From assembly GCF_001677475.2 (NCBI RefSeq), contig NZ_CP015229.1: a stretch of 64,000 nt of DNA, one strand, 5' to 3'. The DNA comes from Escherichia coli (GTDB lineage: Bacteria; Pseudomonadota; Gammaproteobacteria; Enterobacterales; Enterobacteriaceae). A program made the translations under genes and the position numbers. The notes below the pieces were generated by a model. That model ran no database searches. It saw nothing but the letters and a program-made list of their open reading frames with translations, and had not been told where the DNA came from. Shown here in pieces: positions 3,515 to 48,818 of this stretch (position 1 is the stretch's first letter; every line of letters starts with the position of its first letter).

Positions 3515-6217
3515 TTATTGCTTAGTAAACGGCGCGAAGATTTCGCTAAATGCGTACTTCGGTGCCTGTTCTTTAGTCAGGCCGTGGAATTCCGGAGACA
3601 GGTTAGTGCCGCCTGGCAGGTCGCGCGCGATTGACCAGATACCAACCATACCGAGATTACGCTTCTGCGCATCCTGCATGACCAGACGAGCATCAGAGAG
3701 ATAGAACACCTCGCCCTGAACGTCGTTCACGCCAACCATCGGCGTGGTACCCATCATAGCGTCAATTTCTGCATCGCTCTTGTTGGGATGGAGGCCTTTC
3801 AATTGTGAATGCAGGTTGGCAATCGCAGACGTTGCACACTTACCGTGAATGTTCTGGCCTTCGGTATTTGCAGACTGACAAATCGCGTTACCGTAGTCCA
3901 TTGTCATCACGTTCACACCCGCCAGCTCAACACCTTTCGCTTTGGCATCGCTCAGGACATTCATCCCTTCCGGCGTCAGGCCAGTCGGCAGAATTGGCAA
4001 GGTGTACCAGATAGCAATATCTTTGCCTTCTGACTTCCATTTATCCTGCACTTTCTTCACAGCAAGGTTACGACGTTCAATAGATGCCTGATCCGCAACC
4101 CAGGTGCCTTCGATATCGAAGTCCAGGACTCTGAGGTTCAGGTTATCAACGATGTCATAATAATGCTGCATCAGATCGTCTACGTTCTTACAGGAAGCAG
4201 CCAGCGGAGCGTTGTTAGCACCACCGATAGACAGCATCACATCGCCGCCAGCCTCACGCAGGGCTTTGATTTTGCTGTACTGAGCGTAATTTTGCATACC
4301 ATAAGCGGTACCCCATGTCGGCAGACAGGTGTTCGCATCTTTACTCACCACAAACGCCAGCGTGAAGTGGTTGACGTTATGATTCTTAGCCAGCGCAGCC
4401 AGATCCGGGATCGTATTCAGCGTAAAGTCAACATACGGTGCATAAACGTGTTTCGGCCACGCTTTCTTCGGCGTACCTACACGTTCTTTGGTTCCGGTCC
4501 AGTCAACAAAAACACGCCACGGGTTGCTGTCAGAAGGAGAAACTTTCTGCACTTTACTCTGAGAAATGTAGTTCGCACCGTTAAAGCGAATCAGCGTATC
4601 GCTGGTATAAAGCGTTTCTGGATTAAACTGCGGCGCATTATTCAGCTCTTCGTTGCTATAGCTCTGAGCCTTACCTAACGGCTTCCACGGGCGGCTATTG
4701 CTACCGGTGGCGTTTTGGTTCGCAACCAGAGCAGGGTTGTCACTTTGCGTCCAGAACAGCGCTTCATAAGCCTGCCCATCAACAACAACGCGATCACCTT
4801 TCACGTACACAGTGGATGCGGACCATGCTTTCGCCGGTTCGTATTTCTTCCACGGGTTATCACCGCCTGGGACAAAGCCCCATGCGTCTTGATCGACAGA
4901 AGTTTTATAATGTGCATCGTTATAATCTACGATGCTGTCCGCGCTGTACGCTTTGCTGGCCTGGAAACCATCCGCAACAATGACGCCGCCGTTATCAATT
5001 TCACAGGTAGTCGGGTTACCGTACTGACTCAATTCCGCAGCGGTAGCTGTACGCACGAGACGCCATGGGTTATTGGAGTTTTCAGCGCTGGTACCCCGTG
5101 GGCAATCTTTAGACCCAACCCACCAGGCGTTCTTGTAAACATTACCATTGAAAATAACATGGTAAATTTCGCTACCTTCCTGGCCGCTCCACGCTTGCAA
5201 TGAGTAATCGTTACCGCTATCCGCTGGTGTTGATGGCTCGTTGTTATCCGGAGTTGGGGTAACCGGAGTTTCTGGTGTTTCCGGAGTTGGATCAACCGGA
5301 GTCACAGCACCGCCATTATTATCCGGCTTAACGGAACAGGAGCCAGGGTTACCATACTGACTGATTTCTGTTGCCGTTGCCGTGCGAACATAACGCCATG
5401 GGTTACTGGCATCGTTTTCTTTCGCATCGCCTGGGCAATTTGCCGCGCCTACCCACCAGGCGTTCTTATAAATGCCGCCGTTGTAGATAACGTACCATGT
5501 AGAAGAACCTTCCTGACCTTTCCAGGCTACGACAGCATAGTTGTCGTTTGACTTATCAGCTGGGGCTGGCTGAACATCAGGAGCCGGTTTAACGTCCGGT
5601 GCCGGTTTCACATCCGGTGCAGGCTGTGGTGCTGAAGTACAGGACTGTGGATTACTGGTTTGCGTGATTTCCGTTGCCGTAGCGGCACGAACATAACGCC
5701 ATGGGTTGCTGGCATCATTGCCTTTCGCATCACCCGGGCAGTTAGAAGAGGCTACCCACCAGGCATTTTTATATACCGCACCATTAAAGACGACATACCA
5801 GGTCTGACCGCCCTGCTGTTTATTCCAGGCAACTACAGAAGAATTAGACGGAACAGTGCCCTGTGCTGGTGTAGCCGAACCGCCATTAGCCGGCGTATTG
5901 GATGCAGGCGTATTTGAATTTGAAGAAGATGAGCTGCCGCTCTTTTCGCAGGAAAGTGTATTGCCATACTGACTAATTTCAGCAGCTGTCGCGGTACGCT
6001 TTAAACGCCACGGGTTAGTTGCATCATTTGCTTTCGCTTTTCCCGGGCAATTTGTAGAAGAAACCCACCAGGCATTTTCATAAATTTTGCCATCGAAAAT
6101 AACCTGATATTTATTACCACCTTGTTGGTTATTCCATGCTTCCATTGCCAATGCTGGCAGAGCGGAACACACCAGCCCCATACCAATCATAGATTTAGTA
6201 AATATATTTAATTTCAT
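3515..6217 (-). CDS. chiA: Periplasmic endochitinase with N-terminal signal peptide and tandem carbohydrate-binding modules
   Basis: 900-aa ORF; signal peptide; four ~65-aa tandem repeats (AWxxQQGG...NAWWV...NPWR...C) plus further chitin-binding-like modules; C-terminal catalytic domain with DFDIEG motif. Confidence 0.9.
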   Translation of the reverse strand: MKLNIFTKSMIGMGLVCSALPALAMEAWNNQQGGNKYQVIFDGKIYENAWWVSSTNCPGKAKANDATNPWRLKRTATAAEISQYGNTLSCEKSGSSSSSNSNTPASNTPANGGSATPAQGTVPSNSSVVAWNKQQGGQTWYVVFNGAVYKNAWWVASSNCPGDAKGNDASNPWRYVRAATATEITQTSNPQSCTSAPQPAPDVKPAPDVKPAPDVQPAPADKSNDNYAVVAWKGQEGSSTWYVIYNGGIYKNAWWVGAANCPGDAKENDASNPWRYVRTATATEISQYGNPGSCSVKPDNNGGAVTPVDPTPETPETPVTPTPDNNEPSTPADSGNDYSLQAWSGQEGSEIYHVIFNGNVYKNAWWVGSKDCPRGTSAENSNNPWRLVRTATAAELSQYGNPTTCEIDNGGVIVADGFQASKAYSADSIVDYNDAHYKTSVDQDAWGFVPGGDNPWKKYEPAKAWSASTVYVKGDRVVVDGQAYEALFWTQSDNPALVANQNATGSNSRPWKPLGKAQSYSNEELNNAPQFNPETLYTSDTLIRFNGANYISQSKVQKVSPSDSNPWRVFVDWTGTKERVGTPKKAWPKHVYAPYVDFTLNTIPDLAALAKNHNVNHFTLAFVVSKDANTCLPTWGTAYGMQNYAQYSKIKALREAGGDVMLSIGGANNAPLAASCKNVDDLMQHYYDIVDNLNLRVLDFDIEGTWVADQASIERRNLAVKKVQDKWKSEGKDIAIWYTLPILPTGLTPEGMNVLSDAKAKGVELAGVNVMTMDYGNAICQSANTEGQNIHGKCATSAIANLHSQLKGLHPNKSDAEIDAMMGTTPMVGVNDVQGEVFYLSDARLVMQDAQKRNLGMVGIWSIARDLPGGTNLSPEFHGLTKEQAPKYAFSEIFAPFTKQ

Positions 6218-19566: not shown

Positions 19567-20588
19567 TGGCGCAGATAACGACGACCGAGGCCAATGAATT
19601 CAGCAGCAGCGCTGAATTCACCCCTATGCGCGGCTTTAGCAATTGTCATCTCCAAACCATGCTGCCGCGTCTGTTTCGTCGTCAGGTGAAATTCACCCCG
19701 TACTGGCAGCGACTGGAGTTGCCCGACGGCGATTTTGTCGATCTCGCGTGGAGTGAAGACCCTGCACAGGCGCGGCATAAACCGCGTTTAGTGGTGTTTC
19801 ACGGGCTGGAAGGCAGTCTCAATAGCCCTTACGCCCACGGTCTGGTTGAGGCGGCGCAAAAGCGCGGCTGGCTGGGCGTGGTGATGCATTTTCGCGGATG
19901 CAGCGGTGAACCAAACCGTATGCACCGCATTTACCATTCGGGCGAAACCGAAGACGCCAGCTGGTTTTTACGCTGGCTGCAACGCGAATTTGGTCATGCG
20001 CCAACGGCTGCCGTCGGCTATTCGCTCGGCGGTAATATGCTGGCCTGTTTGCTGGCAAAAGAAGGCAATGATCTCCCGGTTGATGCGGCGGTGATTGTCT
20101 CTGCGCCGTTTATGCTGGAAGCCTGTAGCTATCATATGGAAAAGGGCTTTTCCCGCGTTTATCAGCGTTACTTGCTGAACCTGTTAAAAGCCAATGCCGC
20201 GCGCAAGCTGGCAGCCTACCCCGGAACACTGCCGATTAATCTCGCGCAGTTAAAATCAGTACGTCGCATCCGTGAATTTGACGATCTAATCACCGCCAGA
20301 ATTCACGGCTACGCCGACGCTATCGACTATTATCGTCAGTGTAGCGCCATGCCGATGCTGAACCGGATCGCCAAACCGACGCTGATTATTCACGCCAAAG
20401 ACGATCCGTTTATGGATCATCAGGTGATCCCGAAACCGGAAAGTCTCCCCCCGCAGGTGGAGTATCAACTGACTGAACATGGCGGTCATGTTGGCTTTAT
20501 TGGCGGTACATTACTTCATCCGCAAATGTGGCTGGAGTCACGCATTCCTGACTGGTTAACAACGTATCTGGAGGCGAAATCATGTTGA
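19566..20588 (+). CDS. yheT: Predicted alpha/beta-fold hydrolase YheT
   Basis: 340-aa ORF; start overlaps yheS stop (ATGA); GYSLGG nucleophile-elbow motif. Confidence 0.85.
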
Positions 20589-28931: not shown

Positions 28932-30113
28932 ATGACTAACAGCAATCGCATCAAGCTCACATGGATTAGCTTTCTCTCCTACGCACTGACCGGTGCGTTG
29001 GTTATTGTCACCGGGATGGTGATGGGAAATATCGCCGATTATTTCAATCTGCCTGTTTCCAGTATGAGTAACACCTTCACCTTCCTCAACGCCGGCATTT
29101 TAATCTCTATCTTCCTCAACGCCTGGCTGATGGAAATCGTCCCGTTGAAAACGCAGTTACGTTTTGGCTTTCTCCTGATGGTGCTGGCGGTTGCCGGTTT
29201 GATGTTCAGCCACAGCCTGGCGCTGTTCTCGGCGGCGATGTTCATTCTCGGGGTGGTCAGCGGCATCACCATGTCGATTGGTACATTCCTGATAACACAA
29301 ATGTATGAAGGGCGTCAGCGCGGTTCCCGCCTGTTATTTACCGACTCCTTCTTCAGTATGGCTGGGATGATTTTCCCAATGATCGCCGCGTTTCTACTGG
29401 CGCGCAGCATTGAGTGGTACTGGGTTTATGCCTGCATCGGGTTGGTGTATGTCGCTATTTTTATTCTGACCTTCGGCTGTGAGTTCCCGGCGCTGGGCAA
29501 ACATGCGCCAAAAACGGATGCTCCGGTAGAGAAAGAAAAGTGGGGGATCGGCGTACTGTTTCTCTCTATTGCGGCGCTGTGCTACATCCTCGGTCAGTTA
29601 GGTTTTATCTCCTGGGTGCCTGAGTATGCCAAAGGCCTGGGCATGAGCCTAAACGACGCGGGCACGCTGGTAAGTAACTTCTGGATGTCATACATGGTCG
29701 GTATGTGGGCGTTCAGCTTTATTCTTCGCTTCTTTGATTTGCAACGTATTCTGACCGTACTGGCTGGTCTGGCTGCGATTCTGATGTACGTCTTTAACAC
29801 CGGAACACCAGCACATATGGCGTGGTCAATTCTCGCTCTGGGCTTCTTCTCCAGCGCGATCTATACCACCATCATCACCCTGGGTTCACAGCAGACCAAA
29901 GTACCGTCGCCAAAACTGGTTAACTTTGTCCTGACCTGCGGGACCATCGGTACTATGTTGACCTTTGTGGTTACCGGCCCGATTGTTGAACATAGCGGTC
30001 CGCAGGCGGCACTGCTTACAGCAAACGGTCTGTACGCTGTCGTCTTTGTGATGTGCTTCCTGTTAGGTTTCGTCAGCCGTCACCGTCAGCATAACACCCT
30101 GACCTCTCATTAA
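28932..30113 (+). CDS. tsgA: MFS-type membrane transporter TsgA
   Basis: 393-aa 12-TM-like [24 protein letters not shown]. Confidence 0.9.
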
Positions 30114-30273
30114 TTGTTCATGCCGGGCGGCACTATCGTCGTCCGGCCTTTTCCTCTCTTACCCTGCTACGTACATCTATTTCTATAAATCCGTTCAATT
30201 TGTCTGTTTTTTGCACAAACATGAAATGTCAGACAATTCCGTGACTTAAGAAAATTTATACAAATCAGCAATA

Positions 30274-30289
30274 TACCCCTTAAGGAGTA
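30274..30289 (+). promoter_or_regulatory. NarL/NarP 7-2-7 inverted heptamer site of nirB promoter (TACCCCT-TA-AGGAGTA)
   Basis: Read directly; centred ~27 bp upstream of FNR site as in the described pnir architecture. Confidence 0.75.
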
Positions 30290-30302
30290 TATAAAGGTGA
30301 AT

Positions 30303-30316
30303 TTGATTTACATCAA
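30303..30316 (+). promoter_or_regulatory. FNR binding site (TTGAT-TTAC-ATCAA) of nirB promoter
   Basis: Perfect FNR consensus; -10 hexamer TAAGGT at 30338-30343 places site near -41.5. Confidence 0.9.
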
Positions 30317-30374
30317 TAAGCGGGGTTGCTGAATCGTTAAGGTAGGCGGTAATAGAAAAGAAATCGAGGCAAAA

Positions 30375-32918
30375 ATGAGCAAAGTCAGACTCGCAATTAT
30401 CGGTAACGGTATGGTCGGCCATCGCTTTATCGAAGATCTTCTTGATAAATCTGATGCGGCCAACTTTGATATTACCGTTTTCTGTGAAGAACCGCGCATC
30501 GCTTATGACCGCGTACACCTCTCGTCTTACTTCTCTCACCACACCGCCGAAGAGCTGTCGCTGGTGCGCGAAGGCTTCTACGAGAAACACGGCATCAAAG
30601 TTCTGGTCGGCGAACGCGCTATCACCATCAACCGTCAGGAGAAGGTGATTCACTCCAGCGCCGGGCGCACCGTTTTTTATGACAAGCTGATCATGGCGAC
30701 CGGTTCCTACCCGTGGATCCCGCCAATCAAAGGTTCTGATACTCAGGACTGCTTTGTCTATCGCACCATTGAAGACCTCAACGCCATTGAATCCTGTGCC
30801 CGTCGCAGCAAACGCGGTGCCGTTGTTGGTGGCGGCCTGTTAGGTCTGGAAGCCGCTGGCGCGCTGAAAAACTTAGGCATTGAAACCCACGTTATCGAAT
30901 TTGCCCCTATGCTGATGGCGGAACAGCTTGATCAGATGGGCGGCGAGCAGCTACGTCGCAAAATCGAAAGTATGGGTGTGCGCGTTCACACCAGCAAAAA
31001 CACCCTTGAGATTGTGCAGGAAGGTGTCGAAGCGCGTAAAACCATGCGTTTTGCCGACGGCAGCGAGCTGGAAGTTGACTTTATCGTCTTCTCTACCGGT
31101 ATCCGTCCGCGCGATAAGCTGGCAACCCAGTGTGGTCTGGACGTTGCTCCGCGTGGGGGTATTGTCATTAATGATTCCTGCCAGACTTCCGATCCGGATA
31201 TCTACGCCATCGGTGAATGCGCAAGCTGGAACAACCGTGTATTTGGTCTGGTAGCACCAGGCTACAAAATGGCGCAGGTCGCCGTTGACCACATTCTCGG
31301 TAGCGAAAACGCCTTTGAAGGTGCTGACCTTAGCGCCAAGCTGAAACTGCTGGGCGTAGACGTAGGTGGTATTGGTGATGCGCATGGTCGCACGCCTGGC
31401 GCACGTAGCTACGTTTACCTCGACGAAAGCAAAGAGATCTACAAACGCCTGATTGTCAGCGAAGACAACAAAACCCTGCTCGGTGCGGTACTGGTGGGCG
31501 ATACCAGCGACTACGGCAACCTGCTGCAACTGGTGCTGAACGCTATCGAGCTGCCGGAAAACCCGGATTCTCTGATTCTGCCGGCGCACTCTGGTAGCGG
31601 TAAGCCGTCTATCGGTGTTGATAAACTGCCGGACAGCGCGCAAATCTGCTCCTGCTTCGACGTCACCAAAGGTGATCTGATTGCTGCCATCAACAAAGGC
31701 TGCCACACCGTTGCGGCGCTGAAAGCCGAAACCAAAGCGGGTACTGGCTGCGGTGGCTGTATCCCGCTGGTCACTCAGGTACTGAACGCGGAACTGGCGA
31801 AACAGGGCATCGAAGTTAACAACAACCTGTGCGAACACTTTGCTTATTCGCGTCAGGAACTGTTCCATTTAATCCGCGTTGAAGGCATTAAAACCTTCGA
31901 AGAACTGCTGGCGAAACACGGCAAAGGCTACGGTTGTGAAGTTTGTAAACCGACCGTCGGTTCGCTGCTGGCCTCCTGCTGGAACGAATACATTCTGAAA
32001 CCGGAACATACTCCGCTGCAGGATTCTAACGATAACTTCCTCGCTAACATCCAGAAAGACGGCACCTACTCGGTGATCCCGCGTTCTCCGGGCGGTGAAA
32101 TCACCCCGGAAGGGCTGATGGCGGTAGGTCGTATCGCGCGTGAATTTAATCTCTACACCAAAATCACCGGCTCCCAGCGCCTGGCGATGTTTGGCGCACA
32201 GAAAGACGATCTGCCGGAGATCTGGCGTCAGCTGATTGAAGCCGGCTTCGAAACCGGTCATGCCTATGCGAAAGCACTGCGTATGGCGAAAACCTGCGTG
32301 GGTAGCACCTGGTGCCGCTACGGCGTTGGCGACAGCGTCGGCCTCGGCGTGGAACTGGAAAACCGCTACAAAGGCATCCGTACGCCGCACAAAATGAAGT
32401 TCGGTGTCTCCGGCTGTACCCGTGAATGTTCAGAAGCTCAGGGTAAAGACGTAGGTATTATCGCCACCGAAAAAGGCTGGAACCTGTACGTTTGCGGTAA
32501 CGGCGGCATGAAACCGCGTCATGCAGATCTGCTTGCAGCGGATATCGATCGCGAAACGCTGATCAAATATCTCGACCGCTTCATGATGTTCTACATCCGT
32601 ACCGCCGACAAACTGACGCGTACCGCGCCGTGGTTAGAAAACCTTGAAGGCGGCATCGATTACCTGAAAGCGGTGATCATTGACGACAAACTGGGGCTGA
32701 ACGCACATCTGGAAGAAGAGATGGCGCGCCTGCGTGAAGCGGTAGTATGTGAGTGGACTGAAACGGTCAATACACCGTCCGCGCAGACTCGCTTCAAACA
32801 CTTCATCAACAGCGACAAGCGTGACCCGAACGTGCAGATGGTGCCAGAGCGCGAACAGCACCGTCCGGCAACGCCGTATGAACGTATCCCGGTAACTCTG
32901 GTGGAGGACAACGCATGA
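30375..32918 (+). CDS. nirB: NADH-dependent nitrite reductase large subunit
   Basis: 847-aa ORF MSKVRLAIIGNGMVGHRFIEDLL; FAD/NAD Rossmann motifs, BFD-like 2Fe-2S Cys cluster, sirohaem/4Fe-4S domain. Confidence 0.97.
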   Translation: MSKVRLAIIGNGMVGHRFIEDLLDKSDAANFDITVFCEEPRIAYDRVHLSSYFSHHTAEELSLVREGFYEKHGIKVLVGERAITINRQEKVIHSSAGRTVFYDKLIMATGSYPWIPPIKGSDTQDCFVYRTIEDLNAIESCARRSKRGAVVGGGLLGLEAAGALKNLGIETHVIEFAPMLMAEQLDQMGGEQLRRKIESMGVRVHTSKNTLEIVQEGVEARKTMRFADGSELEVDFIVFSTGIRPRDKLATQCGLDVAPRGGIVINDSCQTSDPDIYAIGECASWNNRVFGLVAPGYKMAQVAVDHILGSENAFEGADLSAKLKLLGVDVGGIGDAHGRTPGARSYVYLDESKEIYKRLIVSEDNKTLLGAVLVGDTSDYGNLLQLVLNAIELPENPDSLILPAHSGSGKPSIGVDKLPDSAQICSCFDVTKGDLIAAINKGCHTVAALKAETKAGTGCGGCIPLVTQVLNAELAKQGIEVNNNLCEHFAYSRQELFHLIRVEGIKTFEELLAKHGKGYGCEVCKPTVGSLLASCWNEYILKPEHTPLQDSNDNFLANIQKDGTYSVIPRSPGGEITPEGLMAVGRIAREFNLYTKITGSQRLAMFGAQKDDLPEIWRQLIEAGFETGHAYAKALRMAKTCVGSTWCRYGVGDSVGLGVELENRYKGIRTPHKMKFGVSGCTRECSEAQGKDVGIIATEKGWNLYVCGNGGMKPRHADLLAADIDRETLIKYLDRFMMFYIRTADKLTRTAPWLENLEGGIDYLKAVIIDDKLGLNAHLEEEMARLREAVVCEWTETVNTPSAQTRFKHFINSDKRDPNVQMVPEREQHRPATPYERIPVTLVEDNA

Positions 32919-33241
32919 GCCAGTGGAAAGACATCTGCAAAATCGATGACATCCTGCCTGAAACCGGCGTCTGCGCGCTGTTAGGTGACGAGCAGGTAGC
33001 AATTTTCCGCCCGTATCACAGCGACCAGGTGTTTGCGATCAGCAACATCGACCCGTTCTTCGAGTCCAGTGTGCTGTCACGCGGGCTGATTGCTGAACAC
33101 CAGGGCGAGCTGTGGGTCGCCAGCCCGCTGAAAAAACAGCGTTTTCGCTTAAGTGATGGCTTGTGCATGGAAGACGAACAGTTTTCCGTAAAGCATTACG
33201 AAGCACGAGTGAAAGACGGCGTGGTACAGCTACGCGGTTAA
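32915..33241 (+). CDS. nirD: Nitrite reductase small subunit (Rieske-like)
   Basis: 108-aa ORF; start overlaps nirB stop. Confidence 0.93.
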   Translation: MSQWKDICKIDDILPETGVCALLGDEQVAIFRPYHSDQVFAISNIDPFFESSVLSRGLIAEHQGELWVASPLKKQRFRLSDGLCMEDEQFSVKHYEARVKDGVVQLRG

Positions 33242-33366: not shown

Positions 33367-34173
33367 ATGTTTACAGACACTATTAATAAGTGTGCGGCTA
33401 ACGCTGCGCGCATTGCACGCCTGTCGGCAAATAACCCGCTCGGCTTCTGGGTCAGCTCCGCAATGGCGGGCGCGTATGTGGGTCTTGGGATCATCCTGAT
33501 TTTCACGCTCGGTAATTTGCTCGATCCGTCCATACGTCCTCTGGTGATGGGCGCGACCTTTGGTATCGCCTTAACGCTGGTGATTATCGCCGGTTCTGAA
33601 CTGTTCACCGGACACACCATGTTCCTCACCTTTGGAGTGAAAGCGGGCACTATCAGCCACGGGCAAATGTGGGCAATCCTGCCGCAAACCTGGCTGGGTA
33701 ACCTGGTCGGTTCCGTCTTCGTTGCCATGCTCTATAGCTGGGGTGGCGGTAGCCTGCTGCCGGTAGATACCAGCATCGTTCACTCCGTCGCGCTGGCAAA
33801 AACCACTGCACCGGCAATGGTACTGTTCTTCAAAGGTGCATTGTGTAACTGGCTGGTTTGCCTGGCAATCTGGATGGCGCTGCGCACTGAAGGGGCGGCG
33901 AAATTTATCGCTATCTGGTGGTGTCTGCTGGCATTTATCGCGTCCGGCTACGAGCACTCCATCGCTAACATGACGCTGTTCGCCCTCTCCTGGTTCGGCA
34001 ACCACAGCGAAGCCTACACGCTGGCGGGTATTGGTCATAACCTGCTGTGGGTGACGCTGGGTAATACTTTATCGGGTGCCGTATTCATGGGATTGGGTTA
34101 TTGGTATGCTACGCCGAAAGCGAATCGTCCGGTTGCGGACAAATTTAATCAAACTGAAACAGCTGCCGGTTAA
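33367..34173 (+). CDS. nirC: Nitrite transporter (formate/nitrite transporter family)
   Basis: 268-aa polytopic ORF in nir operon. Confidence 0.93.
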   Translation: MFTDTINKCAANAARIARLSANNPLGFWVSSAMAGAYVGLGIILIFTLGNLLDPSIRPLVMGATFGIALTLVIIAGSELFTGHTMFLTFGVKAGTISHGQMWAILPQTWLGNLVGSVFVAMLYSWGGGSLLPVDTSIVHSVALAKTTAPAMVLFFKGALCNWLVCLAIWMALRTEGAAKFIAIWWCLLAFIASGYEHSIANMTLFALSWFGNHSEAYTLAGIGHNLLWVTLGNTLSGAVFMGLGYWYATPKANRPVADKFNQTETAAG

Positions 34174-34191: not shown

Positions 34192-35565
34192 GTGGATCAT
34201 TTGCCTATATTTTGCCAATTACGCGATCGCGACTGTCTGATTGTCGGCGGTGGTGATGTCGCGGAACGCAAAGCAAGGTTGCTGTTAGACGCGGGTGCTC
34301 GCTTAACGGTGAATGCATTAGCGTTTATTCCACAGTTCACCGCATGGGCAGATGCAGGCATGTTAACCCTCGTCGAAGGGCCATTTGATGAAAGCCTTCT
34401 CGACTCCTGCTGGCTGGCGATTGCTGCGACGGATGATGACGCGCTTAACCAGCGCGTCAGTGAAACCGCTGAAGCTCGTCGCATCTTCTGTAACGTGGTC
34501 GATGCGCCGAAAGCCGCCAGCTTTATTATGCCGTCAATTATTGACCGCTCACCGCTCATGGTAGCGGTCTCCTCTGGCGGCACCTCTCCGGTTCTGGCGC
34601 GCCTGTTGCGTGAAAAACTTGAATCACTGCTGCCGCTGCATCTGGGTCAGGTGGCGAAATATGCCGGGCAGTTACGTGGTCGGGTAAAACAGCAGTTCGC
34701 TACAATGGGTGAACGTCGCCGTTTCTGGGAAAAACTGTTCGTTAATGACCGCCTGGCGCAGTCGCTGGCAAACAACGATCAGAAAGCCATTACTGAAACG
34801 ACCGAACAGTTAATCAACGAACCGCTCGACCATCGCGGTGAAGTGGTGCTGGTTGGCGCAGGTCCGGGCGATGCCGGGCTGCTGACACTGAAGGGTCTGC
34901 AACAAATTCAGCAGGCAGATGTGGTGGTCTACGACCGTCTGGTTTCTGACGATATTATGAATCTGGTACGCCGCGATGCTGATCGCGTTTTCGTCGGCAA
35001 ACGCGCGGGATACCACTGCGTACCGCAGGAAGAGATTAACCAGATCCTGCTGCGGGAAGCGCAAAAAGGCAAACGCGTGGTGCGGCTGAAAGGCGGCGAT
35101 CCGTTTATTTTTGGCCGTGGTGGCGAAGAGCTGGAAACACTGTGCAACGCGGGTATTCCGTTCTCGGTGGTTCCGGGTATTACCGCAGCTTCTGGTTGCT
35201 CTGCCTATTCGGGTATTCCGCTCACGCATCGCGATTATGCTCAGAGCGTGCGCTTAATTACCGGACACTTAAAAACTGGTGGCGAGCTGGACTGGGAAAA
35301 CCTGGCGGCAGAAAAACAAACGCTGGTGTTCTATATGGGACTGAATCAGGCTGCGACTATTCAGCAAAAGCTGATTGAACACGGTATGCCTGGCGAAATG
35401 CCGGTGGCAATTGTCGAAAACGGAACAGCAGTCACGCAGCGCGTGATTGACGGTACGCTCACACAGCTGGGCGAACTGGCGCAGCAAATGAACAGTCCAT
35501 CGCTAATTATTATTGGTCGGGTTGTTGGCCTGCGCGATAAACTGAACTGGTTCTCCAACCATTAA
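34192..35565 (+). CDS. cysG: Sirohaem synthase (multifunctional uroporphyrinogen-III methyltransferase/dehydrogenase/ferrochelatase)
   Basis: 457-aa ORF; N-terminal NAD-binding [11 protein letters not shown]-terminal SAM methyltransferase [10 protein letters not shown]. Confidence 0.96.
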
Positions 35566-41212: not shown

Positions 41213-41263
41213 GGACCGTCCGGCGCTGAATTTAGCTTGATTGCCGAACGGGGCTATCCAGCA

Positions 41264-42349
41264 TTAAATACTGGCAATACTCTCACGCAAAATCCGCAGC
41301 ACCGTCTCTTCACCGCTGCGATTTGGGTTAATACGAATCGCGTAATGTTCGAGTTGCGGATTCGCCTGGCGAAACGTTCCGGAAAGGCGATAAAAAAGCG
41401 GCGGGATCTCATATTTCGACTCTGCACCAACCGGGTAAGGCAAGGCACCGCGCTTTTGCGCCTCTTCCAGTACTCTGGCGGCAATCGGCTGATGAAACTC
41501 CACAATCAACACCTTCGACTGTGCATTGGCAATCACCGCGCTTTTCACGTCCGCCACTGCGCCACCGTTAAGTAAAGCCAGCAACCGTTCAGATACCCCC
41601 GCCTGCACCGCGTGCATCACTGGCGCAAACACCAGCCCACGCAAGACTTCCAACGCCTGCGCGCCCTGAATCTGGCTGCCGCCGGAGTAAAGCGTGGCGC
41701 GAATACGGTTGATAACATCAGCATCGCCTACCACCGCGCCAACACCCTCTGGCCCAAATAGCTTGAAGCAGGAAAAAGTCGAGACATTCGCCCCGCATTC
41801 GCAGCCGATTCGCGCTACCTTCATCACCGCATAGTTGTCATCGGTTAAGGCTGGAACACTTGCCGCGCGCAACGTTGCCAGCACATCTGCCAGCACATAG
41901 CTATCCTGCGGCTGCTGGCGCGTATGCTGCACCAGCGCGGCATCTGGTTGTTGCTCGTCGACAACCTGCTTCAGTGCCGACAGGTCATTGAAATCAGCAG
42001 TGATAAGCGTCAGCCCCATCTGCTCAATAATGACCTGAGTCGTCGGGTAAACCGGCGCGTCATGCACCAGAAGACGCTGCCCCGGTTTGAGCAAAACCGC
42101 CAACGCCGCACGAATCGCTCCAGTACCCGCGCCCTGCACCAGCGCCGCAGCCTGTGCGTGAAATGCATCAGCCAGCACCTGTTCCACACGCTGGGTAATG
42201 CGCGGTTGATTCAGTCCCGGCGTTAAGCCTAAATCACCGCCAGCAAGAAACTCGCTGCCGGGAAAATGGCGGCAAATCGTGTCCACCAGCGCAAACTGCT
42301 TTTGCTGCGCCTCAATAAGCGTCAGGCTTTGCAGAGGAAACGTCTTCAT
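41264..42349 (-). CDS. yhfS: Predicted PLP-dependent enzyme YhfS (fold-type I-like)
   Basis: 361-aa ORF; candidate PLP-lysine in STFSCFKLFGPEG; last gene of yhf cluster. Confidence 0.8.
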   Translation of the reverse strand: MKTFPLQSLTLIEAQQKQFALVDTICRHFPGSEFLAGGDLGLTPGLNQPRITQRVEQVLADAFHAQAAALVQGAGTGAIRAALAVLLKPGQRLLVHDAPVYPTTQVIIEQMGLTLITADFNDLSALKQVVDEQQPDAALVQHTRQQPQDSYVLADVLATLRAASVPALTDDNYAVMKVARIGCECGANVSTFSCFKLFGPEGVGAVVGDADVINRIRATLYSGGSQIQGAQALEVLRGLVFAPVMHAVQAGVSERLLALLNGGAVADVKSAVIANAQSKVLIVEFHQPIAARVLEEAQKRGALPYPVGAESKYEIPPLFYRLSGTFRQANPQLEHYAIRINPNRSGEETVLRILRESIASI

Positions 42350-42360
42350 AGGTGCCTTCC

Positions 42361-43665
42361 TTAAGCTGGAACAAACAGACCAAGCCAGTAAAGAACATTC
42401 AGCAGAATACCGGTGATCATTACTGCCACGACCGGTGCCGCCATTTTCTGTACCGGACGGCCCAGGGATTCGTTGAAGAAGTAAATGGCAACCGCGATAG
42501 AGAATCCGGTATAATCCGCCATTTTAATTGCTGCGAAAATCGAACCGACCAGCAGCGCCACTTCCATCAGCATATTCATGGCGTTACGGATGTTATCCGA
42601 CGCATTACGCACCGACGGATAGCGCCCCAGCCATTTGCCAATCGAACGAAGCAGTAAGACTTCCGCCGAAATAACCACTGCGCCTAATACCGCTGCAACC
42701 ATCGGATTCGGCGAGAGATAGCCCACCGCATAAACAAAGGTAAAGCCCGCAACTGCATACACGCCAGTGGCTAACGCCGTGGTGGCAATCAACGGCACAA
42801 ACCCCAGTCCGCGCATAAATTCTGCCAGAGCCGCCTGATTAATCAGCGTTTGCGATTGTTCCGGCGTTACGCCTGCGGAATATGCTTTCTCCAGTGTGAA
42901 GATCGAAACTTCGCTACCAGCAAAAATCTTCATGCTGGCAACGGCGGCAATCAATGCTCCCACGATGGCGATATACGGTAAGTTTTTGATAATCCGCGAC
43001 GTGCGTTCTTCAAACACCGAAAGCCCGCTGGCATCAATGTCATTTTCATCACGATGACGCAAGTCGTGAGTTATCGCGATCCCCAGCAGCATCACCATGC
43101 CAATAAAGATTTCGATGGATTCAGGGTTAAGATGTGGGAAATAGCGCACGACGACCACACGGGTCATCAGTACCACCACGGCGGCGATCAGACTTTGCTT
43201 CCAGCCAAACTGGTAGAAAATCGCCACCAGCGGGAACAGTGCAAAAGCTGAAACCACCGGCGAGCTTAATTCCCCCAGGCTACCTAATACATCCACCGGT
43301 AGCGCGGTCAGCAGCTGGTTTACCGGCAACAGGCAAGTAAGGATCTACACGCCCCAGATAGCGCCAAGACCAAACGCCATCAGGCTGTTTATCGCCAGTA
43401 CGCCGAGGATATCGGTAGGAAGAAAGAGTAACCATGCGTTGAGCAGCCCGGTTTTCAGGGTAAACGAGATCCCCACCGAGGCCACAAAACCAATGCTCAG
43501 ACCAAAAGCGATACTCCCCGCCTCGCGACGGTTCATATAGCCTTCAATCAGTTGCGGCAGGATCGGGCGGATACCGTCATGAAAAACGGCCGCCGAGCGA
43601 TGCGCCAGAAGCGATGTCATACCCGTCAGGCACGCCACCACGATAATCTGAATATACAGATCCAT
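42361..43665 (-). pseudogene. yhfT: yhfT membrane transporter-like gene interrupted by in-frame TAG at 43345-43347 (106-aa N-terminal ORF + 322-aa remainder in same frame)
   Basis: ORFs 43345-43665 and 42361-43329 share one reading frame, separated only by TAG plus 5 sense codons; 106+1+5+322 = 434 codons, the length I recall for intact YhfT. Confidence 0.75.
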
Positions 43666-43676
43666 AGTCGTGCCTT

Positions 43677-44030
43677 TTATTTCAGATGGTTAATCAGCAT
43701 CGGAATCGCGTGTTCGACATGCTCAACGGAAAGCCCAAACGCCACTTTCCCTTCGGCGATCATTTTGGCGATATGTTCGTCTTTCGCTTTAATGCCTGGT
43801 TTGGCAATGGTGCAACTTTTGTTATAGCCAATCACCGCGATGGCAATCGACAATGCCGCGCCCGCACCGGTATTACACGCGCCGATGTAGTAATCCAGTT
43901 GCCCGGATTTCACTTTCATTGCCGCTTCCATGTCGTTGTGAATGAAAACTTCAAAACGGCCAGGAGCCGTCGCTTCAATGGTTTTTTTAATCTGCTCACG
44001 CTGTAAGCCTGCAACACCAATCTTTTTCAT
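43677..44030 (-). CDS. yhfU: Uncharacterised protein YhfU (DUF family)
   Basis: ORF 43677-44069; probable start MKKIGVAGLQ at 44030 (117 aa). Confidence 0.8.
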   Translation of the reverse strand: MKKIGVAGLQREQIKKTIEATAPGRFEVFIHNDMEAAMKVKSGQLDYYIGACNTGAGAALSIAIAVIGYNKSCTIAKPGIKAKDEHIAKMIAEGKVAFGLSVEHVEHAIPMLINHLK

Positions 44031-44040
44031 GAGTCTGTCC

Positions 44041-44919
44041 TTATTGGAAAAATTGAGAGGGAGTTTCACGTAACATCACATCCACATCGGCCTGACTGAA
44101 TCCTGACTGGCGCAATTGCGGAATAAAGGTGGTCAATAAATAGTCATAGCCATAACCACCGTTGGCTTTTAAATGGGAGCGGCGCGTAATATCCATCGAC
44201 AGCATGACGCGGTTCAGCAACCCACGGTCGCGTAGCGCATGAAGCATCGCAATACGCATTTCGTCCGGGTAGTAACTGTTCTTACCAATGGTGTCGAACT
44301 GCACATACGCGCCGAGATCGATCATCTTCAAAATGTTGTCGAGGTTGTCTTTCAGATCGCAGTGACCAACGGTGACGCGCGAAAGATCAACTCCGTGGGC
44401 TTGCAGTAGCGCCAGTTGTTCCAGACCCATGGTGCTAAAAGAGGTATGCGTGGAGATCGGACGTCCGGTCTGGTTATGTGCCAGCGCGGCGGCAATAAAC
44501 ACCTTCTCTTCCAGCGGCGTAATCTTCCCTTCGCTGGAGCCGATCTCCGCGATGATCCCGGCTTTCAGCTCCGTGCCATCGATACCCTGTTCAATTTCAT
44601 CGACCATCTCCTGCGCCAGTTCCTGCACGCTGCGGGTCGCCACATGTTGCGGGAAAAACGCGTCCTGGTAATAACCGGTACAGGCCACCACGTTGATCCC
44701 GGTTTCGCGCATTACATCGAGCATAAATTGCGCATTGCGCCCCATATAACGGTTGGTCATCTCAATCACATTACGCACGCCCTGGGCCATCAGGTCGTTC
44801 ATCTCCTGGCAAATGAACGCATACTGATCAAGGCGGCAGTCCACGTTGTTTTTAAAGCCTGAGAGATCAATATGCAGATGCTCATGGGCGAGGGTGTAAC
44901 CCGTCGGATCAAAACTCAT
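44041..44919 (-). CDS. php: Phosphotriesterase-homology protein (amidohydrolase superfamily, binuclear metal centre)
   Basis: Probable start [20 protein letters not shown] (292 aa); HxH metal-ligand motif. Confidence 0.9.
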
Positions 44920-46142
44920 AGGGTGTCTCCTGCAAACCGGAGGGAGGAAAGAAAAGAGCAACCATTTTGTGGCGGTGGCGCACGGAAAAATTCACACACG
45001 GTAGCCCCCACATCAGAAAGCGTGGTGCGCACACCGAGTTGCGTGTGGACCAGCCCTTGCTGATAAACCAGCACCGGCACCATTTCGCGGGTATGGTGGC
45101 TGTGACCGATTGTCGGATCGTTACCATGATCCGCCATCACGACCAGGCAATCATCTGGCTGCATCACCTCAACAAGCCGGGCAAGGTTTCGGTCAACGAC
45201 CTGCAAACGTTCGGCATAACGTGCGACGTCTTCTGCGTGACCAGCGAGGTCGGTTTCCTGGATATTGGTGCAAATAAACGCCGTCGGATGCGTGTTAAAT
45301 TCGTCGAGGGTGATATCCATAATCCGCTGGCTATCCACCAGGTTTTGCCAGCTCACGCCATAAGGATTGCTGGCAATATCCGCCACTTTCCCCACCAGCA
45401 CGGTTGGTACGCCCACTTCATACAGTTTTTGTGGCACCTGCACTTTATCATCGACACCGTAGCCCATATGCACGACCTGGAAGCCGTTGTCATAAGCGCC
45501 TGAACGCGGCGCATTGATACCAATAAAGCGCCCTTCTTTGCTTTCTGCGGCATCGAGAATGCGTTGACTGTCGGGTAACAGGCCGCCAAATGTAATGACC
45601 CGACCGACCTGTACCTGCTCACGCACAATACGACCAATTTTGATTGCGTCGTCAAAAGAGATCACAGAGAGATTGGCGGTGATGTTATAGACCTGGCCTA
45701 AATCCGCCTCGAGATTATCGCCAATCGCAACCGCCTGATTGACCCACAGAAATTGCAGATCATCGCCACGGCGCTCCACCTGCCAGCCTGCGGAAACTAA
45801 TGCCTGCTCAACACGGTCAATCACATCGCGAAAGGGCATCCGCAGCGGCGGTAACGGGCGCGTGCCTAAAATTTCCTGATGCCCCATAAAGGTATCGCCA
45901 CCTTCATGTTGCAGCTCTGCCACGCCCCAGGTTGCGGAGTCTGACGGCTGCATATCTCCAGGCGCATAACCTAATGCGTTGATTAGCCCCATTTTCTCCA
46001 GCATTGGTAGCTGCAAATGCGGCAACTGGCTCAGGATGTGACCACAGGTATTTGCCCCGGCATCCTGCGGACGCACCAACGTGACATCTTTCATTGCCCC
46101 TACGCCAAAGCTATCAATCACTAACACCACAAATCGCGCCAT
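44916..46142 (-). CDS. yhfW: Phosphopentomutase-like protein (alkaline-phosphatase superfamily)
   Basis: 408-aa [22 protein letters not shown] resembling DeoB N-terminus; stop overlaps php start. Confidence 0.85.
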
Positions 46143-47305
46143 TACGCCTCCAGAGGGTTGCCGAGGCTGTCATAACGACCCACAATCTCTGCCGCGCCAC
46201 GCTGAATACCAGACACCAGCACCACATCGCTACGGGTGACAAAAATCTGCGTGCGAAAACAGAGCACCACTGCACTGCTTACCGGATGCTCACCTGCCAG
46301 CGGCAGGGTGTAGTCGATACCGCTGTCATCCACGGCTTTGAGATATGTTTCAGTCACGCTTTGATTCTCTGGCGTAAACACCAACGCATGTTGCGCATGA
46401 CCACGACGGTAATAACCGCCGCCGTAGCAGTAGCTGTCACCACGGAAGTGATGGGAAATTTCGCTCAGCCAAAGCATCGCGATACGTTCAGGCTGGTCTC
46501 CCTGCTGGTTTACCGGAATCGTCCCCGTCAGTGCATGACCGGGTTCGGCATGAGTCACACCGTATTCCGCCAGTAATGGCAGCGAAGTGCAGCTGGTCGC
46601 TGAAGGCGCGTTCAGTTGCTCAATCGCAATACCAGATTTCGCCAGTTGATCCCGTACCTGTATCAGCGTGTGAAGATTCGGTGTCGGCAAAACTTTCCCG
46701 GCAGCCTCATCCCAAAGCAGGCAAGGGAAATGGGTTAGTCCGGCTAAATGCAGCCCCGGCAGTTTCTTAATTTCAGCAACCACCTCGTGCAGCGAATGCT
46801 GTACAAAACCGCTCTCCTGCCCCGGATAAAGAAAATCATCGTCGCTATAAACTTTGAGCAGCACAGACTGGATTCGCCCGGCCTTCACCGCCGCCGCAGA
46901 AACTTCCCGCGCTTTGTCGAGAGTAAACACGGTGATGACGTCGGTGCCCTGTTCAACGGCGTCAGCAACCTGATGACAAGGGATTTGTACCAGATGCCCC
47001 TGATGCGCCACCGGCAAACCAGCGCGGCGCATGACTCGCGCCTCTTTGTAATCCACCGCCACAATGCCGCTGTAGCCCAATGCCAGCAGTTTTTCCGCCA
47101 GCCACGGATTACGACCGAATTGTTTGGTCATCAGATACAGTTCAATGCCGTAAAGCCGTGCCGTCTCAATCAGCCGCTTACCGTTTTCCAGTATCTGATC
47201 CACGTCGATCACCCAGCTGTCCGGGGCGATCTTGCCCTGCTGCCACAGGCTTAGTGCGGCGGAAATCAGCGCCGGGTTCTGGCGTTTCAATGCTTCTACA
47301 AACAT
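46142..47305 (-). CDS. yhfX: Alanine-racemase-fold (fold-type III PLP) protein YhfX
   Basis: 387-aa ORF; overlaps yhfW start. Confidence 0.8.
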
Positions 47306-47388
47306 CTTGTTGCCTCGTTTCTGTTCCTTGAGTTAAATATTCATTTTTTTGAATATTTAGGTTGTGCGACGTGGATTTGTCGGGAGCT

Positions 47389-47751
47389 TCAAACCTCTTC
47401 GTTAGCAGCCATCCATAATCCATAAAGGTTGGCCAGCAAATAGCCTTCTTCACACGGGTTAACTTCCAATGCGAATTCCTTCAACAACACCTGATGCAAT
47501 TGCACAACGGCTTGCCAGTGGCTGGATTGCGCCAGCTCTGCCAGCAACTCGTTATCCAGTGGCTCAATTTCTTCACCACGGCGACTGCGCATAAGTGCAC
47601 TCGCCATATGTGTCATCGCCATCGTTCCTTGCTCACTGCGCACCGGCAGATGGCACTCTTTTTCCAGTACGTTGACGACCTGCATCATGCCTTTGCAGAT
47701 GTCCTTATCGATGACCCCTGCATCGCAAAGCAGGTTGAGTCTGGTTTCCAT
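47389..47751 (-). CDS. yhfY: Small uncharacterised protein YhfY
   Basis: ORF 47389-47871; probable start METRLNLLCDAGVIDKDI at 47751 (120 aa). Confidence 0.7.
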   Translation of the reverse strand: METRLNLLCDAGVIDKDICKGMMQVVNVLEKECHLPVRSEQGTMAMTHMASALMRSRRGEEIEPLDNELLAELAQSSHWQAVVQLHQVLLKEFALEVNPCEEGYLLANLYGLWMAANEEV

Positions 47752-47767
47752 TTCAGATGCCTTTGGT

Positions 47768-48673
47768 TTAATAACTGGGTTCCTGTTCCCCACTGACCAC
47801 TCGTTGTTGATGGGCAAGCAGGGCCTGTTTATCAACAACTGCACGCAGCAATTGTTGCATTGGGTAATCATCGACTCGCGTCAGGACCACGGCTTCGGTG
47901 GCCTGTAAAAATCGCGGATCGTCTGTGAGCGGCGTCGCTTCTAATCCCAGCATGGTCAGTTCGTTTTCCGCCACCACGTTCCAGATCACCGCATCAACAT
48001 CGCCTTTAACAATGCGTTGTAAACTCTCGTGATAAGAGAGATCGACACGTTCCACATCACTATCGCCAAAAAAGACATCGGTCATGATTTTCTGATCCGC
48101 CGAACGGTTATCCAGCCCCACGCGCTTCACGTTTGCGGACTCGCCTTTACGGCATATCAACTGGTGTTCGCCAACGTAGGTGTGCGGCCCCAATTCCAGC
48201 GCGAGGCATAACCCTTTTTGCGTGAGATAACTTTCCGCCGCCAGTCGGGAAACCACCGCCATGTCATACACGCCGTTAAGTAAACACTCCACGCGAATAT
48301 CCGCGCCGCGCATATGCGCATAGTAAAAAGGAATGCCATCAAACTGGGCTTTCAATCCGCTCGCTAAACCTTCGTACAAGCGGGTATAGGGCAAAGGCAT
48401 CGCACATACCACGTTGTTGATATCCACATGGCTCAGCAATGCTTTGTTATCCATCTCGACCAGATAACTGCCATTGCGCCCACGGCGTTCAATCCGTATC
48501 GCTCCGCTTGATTCCAGTGTTTTCAACGCTGCCTGCGTCAGGCCAACGGATGAACGGCATTCAGTTGCCAGCTCATCTATGGTTTTCAACCTATTACCGC
48601 ATTTTTCACCCAACAAATAACGGGCCAGCGTCGTGATAACGACGCCTTCTTTTTTGATAAACGTTCGACGCAT
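47768..48673 (-). CDS. yhfZ: Putative transcriptional regulator YhfZ (N-terminal HTH-like, C-terminal ligand-binding-like)
   Basis: 301-aa ORF, first gene of the yhfZ-yhfS co-directional cluster. Confidence 0.8.
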   Translation of the reverse strand: MRRTFIKKEGVVITTLARYLLGEKCGNRLKTIDELATECRSSVGLTQAALKTLESSGAIRIERRGRNGSYLVEMDNKALLSHVDINNVVCAMPLPYTRLYEGLASGLKAQFDGIPFYYAHMRGADIRVECLLNGVYDMAVVSRLAAESYLTQKGLCLALELGPHTYVGEHQLICRKGESANVKRVGLDNRSADQKIMTDVFFGDSDVERVDLSYHESLQRIVKGDVDAVIWNVVAENELTMLGLEATPLTDDPRFLQATEAVVLTRVDDYPMQQLLRAVVDKQALLAHQQRVVSGEQEPSY

Positions 48674-48791
48674 AATATATTTTCAATAAAATGAATGTTT
48701 ATATCTTCATTAAAATGAAGATAAGTGGCAACTGTGAGATGTGGAAACGGCGAGGCGCTTCACATTTTTTCGGATTATTGCAAATGAGGAT

Positions 48792-48818
48792 AAAAAAACC
48801 GGGTTTCCCCGGTTTTTG
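48792..48818 (-). terminator. Rho-independent terminator downstream of trpS
   Basis: accggg-tttc-cccggt hairpin with T7 run on minus strand (A7 on plus strand). Confidence 0.8.

Follow-up and report, generated by a model that had tools for sequence, protein, structure and literature searches.

The nirB promoter of an Escherichia coli-type chromosome: FNR and NarL/NarP sites in the published geometry, with a left heptamer that departs from K-12

Upstream of an 847-aa open reading frame in a 64,000-nucleotide stretch of Escherichia coli DNA (hereafter the window), a sequence-only reading had picked out, by eye, a perfect FNR site, a NarL/NarP 7-2-7 site and a -10 hexamer, had named the whole a textbook nirB promoter with the expected spacing, and had offered it as an internal control for regulatory reading in this window. 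The question that the locus raises is whether these motifs are there as described, whether they belong to pnir, and how far the short description captures what is known of this promoter. pnir drives the cytoplasmic nitrite reductase operon and is on without oxygen, in the presence of nitrate or nitrite. We are practically certain that the feature is pnir (or pnirB), the nirBDC-cysG promoter of an Escherichia coli-type chromosome, and nothing contradicting this identity was found in the present analysis. The evidence obtained here consists of motif presence, an intact operon, near-identity with K-12, and a composite conserved together with its spacing; the binding and regulatory steps come from the K-12 literature, and we infer them for the lineage of the window.

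Motifs, geometry and operon

The FNR site agrees with TTGAT-N4-ATCAA at 10 of 10 positions, and is thus a perfect consensus, and the 7-2-7 site agrees with TACYYMTNNAKRRGTA at all 14 specified positions (Table 1). The two heptamers of the latter are inverted and 2 bp apart, TACCCCT on the plus strand and TACTCCT on the minus strand, and both conform to TACYYMT. When chance expectations are taken from dinucleotide-preserving shuffles of the window, the perfect FNR consensus TTGATNNNNATCAA is found once in the 64 kb against 0.07 expected matches, being the sole perfect site, and the 7-2-7 consensus TACYYMTNNAKRRGTA is found once against 0.01. The composite of a NarL/NarP and an FNR site separated by 11-15 bp likewise occurs once in the window, with an expectation of 0.00 and no occurrence in any of 100 shuffles.

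Table 1. Coordinates of the features in and around the tsgA-nirB intergenic region (window numbering; negative positions are relative to the inferred transcription start)
Feature	Coordinates	Strand	Remarks
tsgA ORF	28932-30113		393 aa
tsgA intrinsic terminator, hairpin then T-run	30122-30147	+	terminator scan; upstream limit of the regulatory region
Fis-like site GTCTGTTTTTTGCAC	30202-30216	.	centre -142.0; GNNYAWWWWWTRNNC scan, 1 mismatch
Conserved upstream block TTCCGnnACTTAnAAAA	30237-30254	.	-114 to -97
IHF-like core AATCAGCAATATA	30263-30275	+	1 mismatch to WATCARNNNNTTR
NarL/NarP 7-2-7 site TACCCCT-TA-AGGAGTA	30274-30289	.	TACCCCTTAAGGAGTA; centre 30281.5 = -69.5
FNR site TTGAT-TTAC-ATCAA	30303-30316	.	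TTGATTTACATCAA; centre 30309.5 = -41.5, class II position
Cra (FruR)-like box GCTGAATCGTTAAG	30328-30341	+	centre -16.5, overlaps -10; 1 mismatch to RSTGAAWCSNTHHW
-10 hexamer TAAGGT	30338-30343	+	-13 to -8
Transcription start +1, A (inferred)	30351	+	FNR centre at -41.5 and identity with K-12
Shine-Dalgarno GAGG	30366-30369	+	5 nt before ATG; conserved across genera
nirB, NADH-nitrite reductase large subunit, intact	30375-32918	+	847 aa
nirD	32915-33241	+	108 aa (ORF list)
nirC	33367-34173	+	268 aa (ORF list)
cysG	34192-35565	+	457 aa (ORF list)

The centres of the two sites lie 28 bp apart, as confirmed by script, and this is the difference between the positions published for them at pnir, where the FNR site of nirBDC-cysG is centred at -41.5 and coincides with a ChIP peak (Myers, 2013; PMC3688515) and NarL is placed at -69.5 (PMC10853779). 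Setting the FNR centre at the published -41.5 puts +1 at 30351 and brings the 7-2-7 site to the published -69.5 of NarL. The FNR site (30303-30316) and the 7-2-7 site (30274-30289) were read back exactly where the sequence-only reading had put them, each unique in the 64 kb; the sequence of its -10 TAAGGT (30338-30343) was confirmed, with a hexamer position that is conserved across genera; and what it had called the expected spacing reproduces the published -41.5/-69.5 geometry, so that the comparison with published pnir that it had proposed as a check ends in agreement at both positions. The start at 30351 is transferred from K-12, to which the window is identical from -71 to +50, and would give a predicted leader of 24 nt. 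We propose no leader RNA element for this 5' UTR, since no Rfam family reached its gathering threshold anywhere in the whole window (1-64000).

The core promoter itself is weak, having, by the sigma-70 scan and comparison of the hexamer, no good -35 and an imperfect -10. TAAGGT, which starts 22 bp past the end of the FNR site, agrees with TATAAT at three of six positions, and a simple sigma-70 consensus scan of 30050-30450 found no promoter. We read the failed scan as a sign of activator dependence and not of an absent promoter, which is the expected, and normal, outcome for class II.

The motifs sit in the 261-bp gap between the 393-aa and 847-aa open reading frames, downstream of tsgA and directly 5' of an intact nirB-nirD-nirC-cysG operon, which is where pnir belongs. 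The NirB of the window carries the Pfam domains Pyr_redox_2, Fer2_BFD, NIR_SIR_ferr and NIR_SIR and is identical to the K-12 protein at 846 of 847 residues, and nirD, nirC and cysG have the lengths and order that they have in K-12 and strain E9. The gene order ppiA, tsgA, nirB, nirD, nirC, cysG is found in the annotation of FDAARGOS_536, K-12 MG1655 and E9. By megablast, the intergenic region matches 5425 of the 5426 complete E. coli genomes, each time directly before the gene annotated as nirB. A decayed operon was also considered as an explanation and is ruled out by the intact nirB.

Parts of the region were also met on plasmids. The 86-kb plasmid NZ_AP027533.1 of E. coli LR-45 carries, at 19755-19805, an exact 51-nt copy of window 30350-30400, annotated as nirB and covering the pnir leader and the nirB 5' end, and one further plasmid-typed record carries the full 90-nt promoter core; these copies could be pieces of chromosome captured by a plasmid, or artefacts of assembly.

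As for the chromosome at large, the window is collinear with that of E. coli from bfr to aroK (6457-54891), and none of the 5426 complete E. coli genomes comes closer to it than about 98.0-98.3% identity over 25-48 kb; relative to the nearest genome, nirB has 35 differences, all at third codon positions. On the strength of this identity and of the 35 out of 35 differences at third positions, the lineage looks like a natural Escherichia/Shigella type that is not closely represented among these 5426 genomes. Within the collinear part, the yhfS-yhfZ segment (41248-48815) is 96.1% identical to strain E9, against 98.3% and 99.0% in its flanks, which suggests a recombined or faster-evolving segment.

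Alleles and neighbouring elements

K-12 pnir and the window have in common the tsgA-nirB intergenic locus, the operon, the FNR site, the -10, the leader and the -41.5/-69.5 geometry. From -122 to +24 they are identical at 145 of 146 positions, and an ungapped alignment with K-12 MG1655 over 30229-30400 has a sole difference at 30279, with C here and A in K-12: the left heptamer reads TACCCCT in the window and TACCCAT, the textbook form, in K-12 (base -72). Upstream of 30229, that is from -123 to the tsgA stop, about ten substitutions separate the two, including one at -123 (G in the window, A in K-12). The 90-nt core from the NarL site to +1 (30262-30351) occurs exactly in 3762 of 5425 complete E. 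coli genomes (69%), and its K-12 version in 1196 (22%); the core with TACCCCT is the majority E. coli allele, and the K-12 TACCCAT a minority one. A third left heptamer, TACCTCT, was found in one representative contig. All three alleles satisfy TACYYMT, with the polymorphism confined to its degenerate positions, and the C at -72, the commonest allele in E. coli, still fits the NarL consensus. An engineered high-affinity NarL site that was used for EMSA also contains TACCCCT as its heptamer (PMC4549865).

Further candidate elements surround the two sites. At the Fis-like site, K-12 has the perfect consensus GTCTATTTTTTGCAC; in the window and in some other lineages the A at 30206 (-145) is replaced by G, and a further natural polymorphism, T/C, is found at 30205. 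The centre of this site, -142, is the position at which Browning et al. (2000/2008) reportedly placed the repressing Fis I site of pnir.

Nearer to the promoter, an alignment of 58 Enterobacteriaceae nirB loci contains two near-invariant upstream blocks, AAATCA (30262-30267) and TTCCGnnACTTAnAAAA. The latter hardly varies across about 15 genera of the Enterobacteriaceae, although it does not match the IHF consensus strongly. Presumably its region is that of a second, activating IHF site (IHF II), at about -115, and the block may be this site or that of another factor. The AAATCA block, at -89 to -84, forms the centre of the IHF-like match and agrees with the position published for IHF I, -88; the match shares 2 bp with the left NarL heptamer. 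Allowing one mismatch, the IHF consensus is found 94 times in the window against 81.5 expected, which is not above chance, so that the match at the promoter weighs only through its position and conservation. IHF and Fis motifs are in any case too degenerate to prove binding, and we do not treat them as evidence alone.

Over the -10 lies a Cra (FruR)-like box. In Enterobacteriaceae the sequence GCTGAATCGTTAAGGTAGGC (30328-30347) shows no variation, while the 8 bp that separate it from the FNR site change freely; its GCTGAATCG part, constant throughout Enterobacteriaceae, is replaced in Erwiniaceae. The strict Cra pattern TGAAWCGNTHHW has no match at the promoter. Cra was reportedly placed at this position of pnir, -16.5, by Tyson et al. 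(1997), and we regard it as a lead joined to a conserved box and not as a finding, because the consensus fits only with one mismatch.

The window thus differs from K-12 at -72, in the left NarL/NarP heptamer, as well as at -123 and -145, and these polymorphisms could give its pnir a basal anaerobic expression, or a nitrate/nitrite induction ratio, tuned to the lineage. This would refine the identification as pnir and does not exclude it. We consider such tuning possible but on the doubtful side, and we give the same tentative standing to the more specific proposal that the C/A/T heptamer alleles (-72/-73) and G versus A at -145 would set lineage-specific nitrite reductase levels or induction ratios. 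At the Fis-like site the change has a direction, in that K-12 GTCTATTTTTTGCAC fits GNNYAWWWWWTRNNC perfectly and the window spoils one consensus position, and according to Browning et al. (2008), as reported, nir expression levels in enteric bacteria are set by differences in the upstream IHF and Fis sites. Against this, every heptamer allele fits the degenerate consensus, the allele of the window is the majority one, and the Fis consensus is very degenerate.

Role of NarL/NarP and related promoters

The mechanism worked out in K-12 is taken to operate likewise in the lineage of the window. Under anaerobiosis, an FNR dimer would bind TTGAT-N4-ATCAA at -41.5 and act as a class II activator of RNA polymerase at a promoter whose -10 is weak and which has no usable -35; IHF (-88) and Fis, bound upstream, would form a nucleoprotein complex that holds this activation down; and with nitrate or nitrite, phosphorylated NarL or NarP would occupy the 7-2-7 site (-69.5), displacing IHF and relieving the repression. 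FNR-dependent anaerobic induction is known for the K-12 nir promoter (PMC3688515), as is the suppression of FNR activation by IHF and Fis upstream (PMC10853779; PMC3688515), and phospho-NarL bound at -69.5, which collides with IHF at -88, drives IHF off and thereby lifts the repression (PMC10853779). That NarL and NarP use the same heptamers at both nitrite reductase promoters is stated in the title of Tyson (1994). The description 'textbook FNR plus NarL/NarP' holds as a list of parts, all of which are present, and is incomplete in two respects: it omits three conserved elements, namely the IHF-like core, the Fis-like site at -142 and the Cra-like box at -16.5, and it understates the logic, the published role of NarL being displacement of IHF and relief of repression by Fis. 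In the published model, nir logic is one of anti-repression within a nucleoprotein complex rather than of simple synergy.

Simple synergy, the literal sense of that description, would mean that NarL or NarP at -69.5 is a conventional co-activator, contacting RNA polymerase (alpha-CTD) jointly with FNR, which we think improbable at this promoter. The 28-bp centre spacing, strictly kept in 83 nirB loci (see below), is compatible with a face-of-helix requirement of this kind, and NarL alone activates from -43.5, -44.5/-77.5 and even -67.5 elsewhere, through alpha-CTD contacts (PMC10853779). These points have to be set against the published pnir model, in which NarL displaces IHF and relieves Fis repression, and against the IHF-like core, which is conserved and shares 2 bp with the left heptamer. 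At K-12 pnir, moreover, fragments truncated or mutated upstream of -60, or ihf fis mutants, have been reported to give full activation by FNR without any need for NarL, which also counts against a co-activator.

Like pnir, the E. coli promoter pnrf, whose operon encodes the periplasmic cytochrome c nitrite reductase, combines FNR in the class II position, -41.5, with a single upstream NarL/NarP 7-2-7 site, and there, too, NarL/NarP binding displaces IHF, and Fis represses (PMC5434802; PMC3688515). Its NarL/NarP site lies at -74.5, as opposed to -69.5 at pnir, and its response to high nitrate differs from that of pnir according to the title of Wang and Gunsalus (2000). The narG promoter resembles pnir in combining FNR at -41.5 with NarL and IHF (PMC3688515; PMC4549865). 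Unlike at pnir, however, IHF is a co-activator at narG, NarL does not displace it, and the NarL heptamers lie far upstream. These are found at about -200, together with a heptamer at -89. The NarL-only promoters yeaR and ogt share the 7-2-7 recognition sequence with pnir without its FNR requirement; NarL, at -43.5 in yeaR and at -44.5 and -77.5 in ogt, recruits RNA polymerase directly (PMC10853779).

Conservation across Enterobacterales and significance

We scanned about 100,000 species genomes (298 Gb, both strands) for the composite with a gap of 11-15 bp and obtained 117 loci, where by our own estimate roughly one would be expected by chance. At 85 of these the gap is 13 bp, and 83 of the 85 have a nirB orthologue on the 3' side. 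Although 11-15 bp were allowed, every nirB-linked match has the 13-bp gap; the orthologues (66-97% protein identity) start 101-110 nt past the first base of the NarL site, compared with 102 nt in the window. The genera represented include Citrobacter, Enterobacter, Kluyvera, Cedecea, Buttiauxella, Atlantibacter, Franconibacter, Kosakonia, Raoultella, Phytobacter, Pantoea, Erwinia, Mixta and Pectobacterium, and also Salmonella enterica subsp. arizonae. As the loci were retrieved by the composite itself, the conservation of its two sites is given by construction, and only the gap length, the linkage to nirB with its ATG register and the unconstrained columns are independent. Among such columns, conservation in the nirB-linked loci extends to the TAA that follows the FNR site and the GAGG that precedes the ATG, and at the offset of the -10, 77 distinct nirB promoters have one of the hexamers TAAGGT, TATTGT and TATCGT, in which T, A, G and T never vary, which supports the assignment of this hexamer.

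The 117 hits include no E. coli, Klebsiella or S. enterica subsp. enterica, even though the pattern matches K-12; their representative genomes may deviate from the consensus at some position, or else the scan was not exhaustive. With E. coli itself not returned, absence from the scan is no argument that a species is without the architecture.

The notion of a chance co-occurrence of the motifs, or of relics without a regulatory role in this lineage, deserves next to no credence and is ruled out by statistics and conservation, the composite being expected 0.00 times in the window, identical in its promoter core in thousands of E. coli genomes, kept in register before nirB across about 20 genera and followed by an intact operon.

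The scan also returned composites away from nirB. A second family, with a 14-bp gap, comes from Rheinheimera, Arsukibacterium, Alishewanella, Alkalimonas and related MAGs (scan loci L007, L009, L011, L014, L015, L022, L025, L027, L044, L050, L053, L060, L061, L064, L074, L076, L079, L083, L097, L100, L103, L105, L106 and L109) and lies about 100-115 nt upstream not of nirB but of a gene for a DGC-domain protein (PF08859) of ~125 aa. In the example of L011, the composite is at 5401-5444 and the gene at 5514-5903, and the surroundings are those of nitrosative stress, with nnrS, a ThiF-family gene and genes for a NorR-like sigma-54 activator and a ScdA/YtfE-type di-iron protein nearby. Isolated hits are those at L010:903-946, L071:1374-1417, L031:6223-6265 and in L096. 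In two gammaproteobacterial MAGs the composite is found about 245 nt upstream of a gene for a ferredoxin-like protein with a twin-arginine leader, and in two Shewanella species a composite with a 13-bp gap is found upstream of one for a signal-peptide protein. The composites from a Clostridia MAG and a Tatlockia MAG, both with a gap of 15 bp, seem to be chance matches.

The nirB promoter is long studied, already known and ordinary, and it was read correctly. As the left heptamer departs from the K-12 textbook TACCCAT, the reader reported real letters and not remembered ones, and the locus serves as the valid positive control that it was meant to be: its value lies in showing that by-eye motif reading of this window was accurate to the base, including the departure from K-12. 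Three minor by-products come with it, namely that the K-12 NarL half-site is a minority E. coli allele, that the Cra-like box over the -10 is specific to Enterobacteriaceae, and that the FNR-NarL spacing and the FNR-ATG distance are invariant before nirB in about 20 genera of Enterobacterales; they leave the understanding of the nir system unchanged. Should the alleles indeed tune expression, K-12, the source of all footprinting, would carry a minority regulatory haplotype (22% versus 69%).
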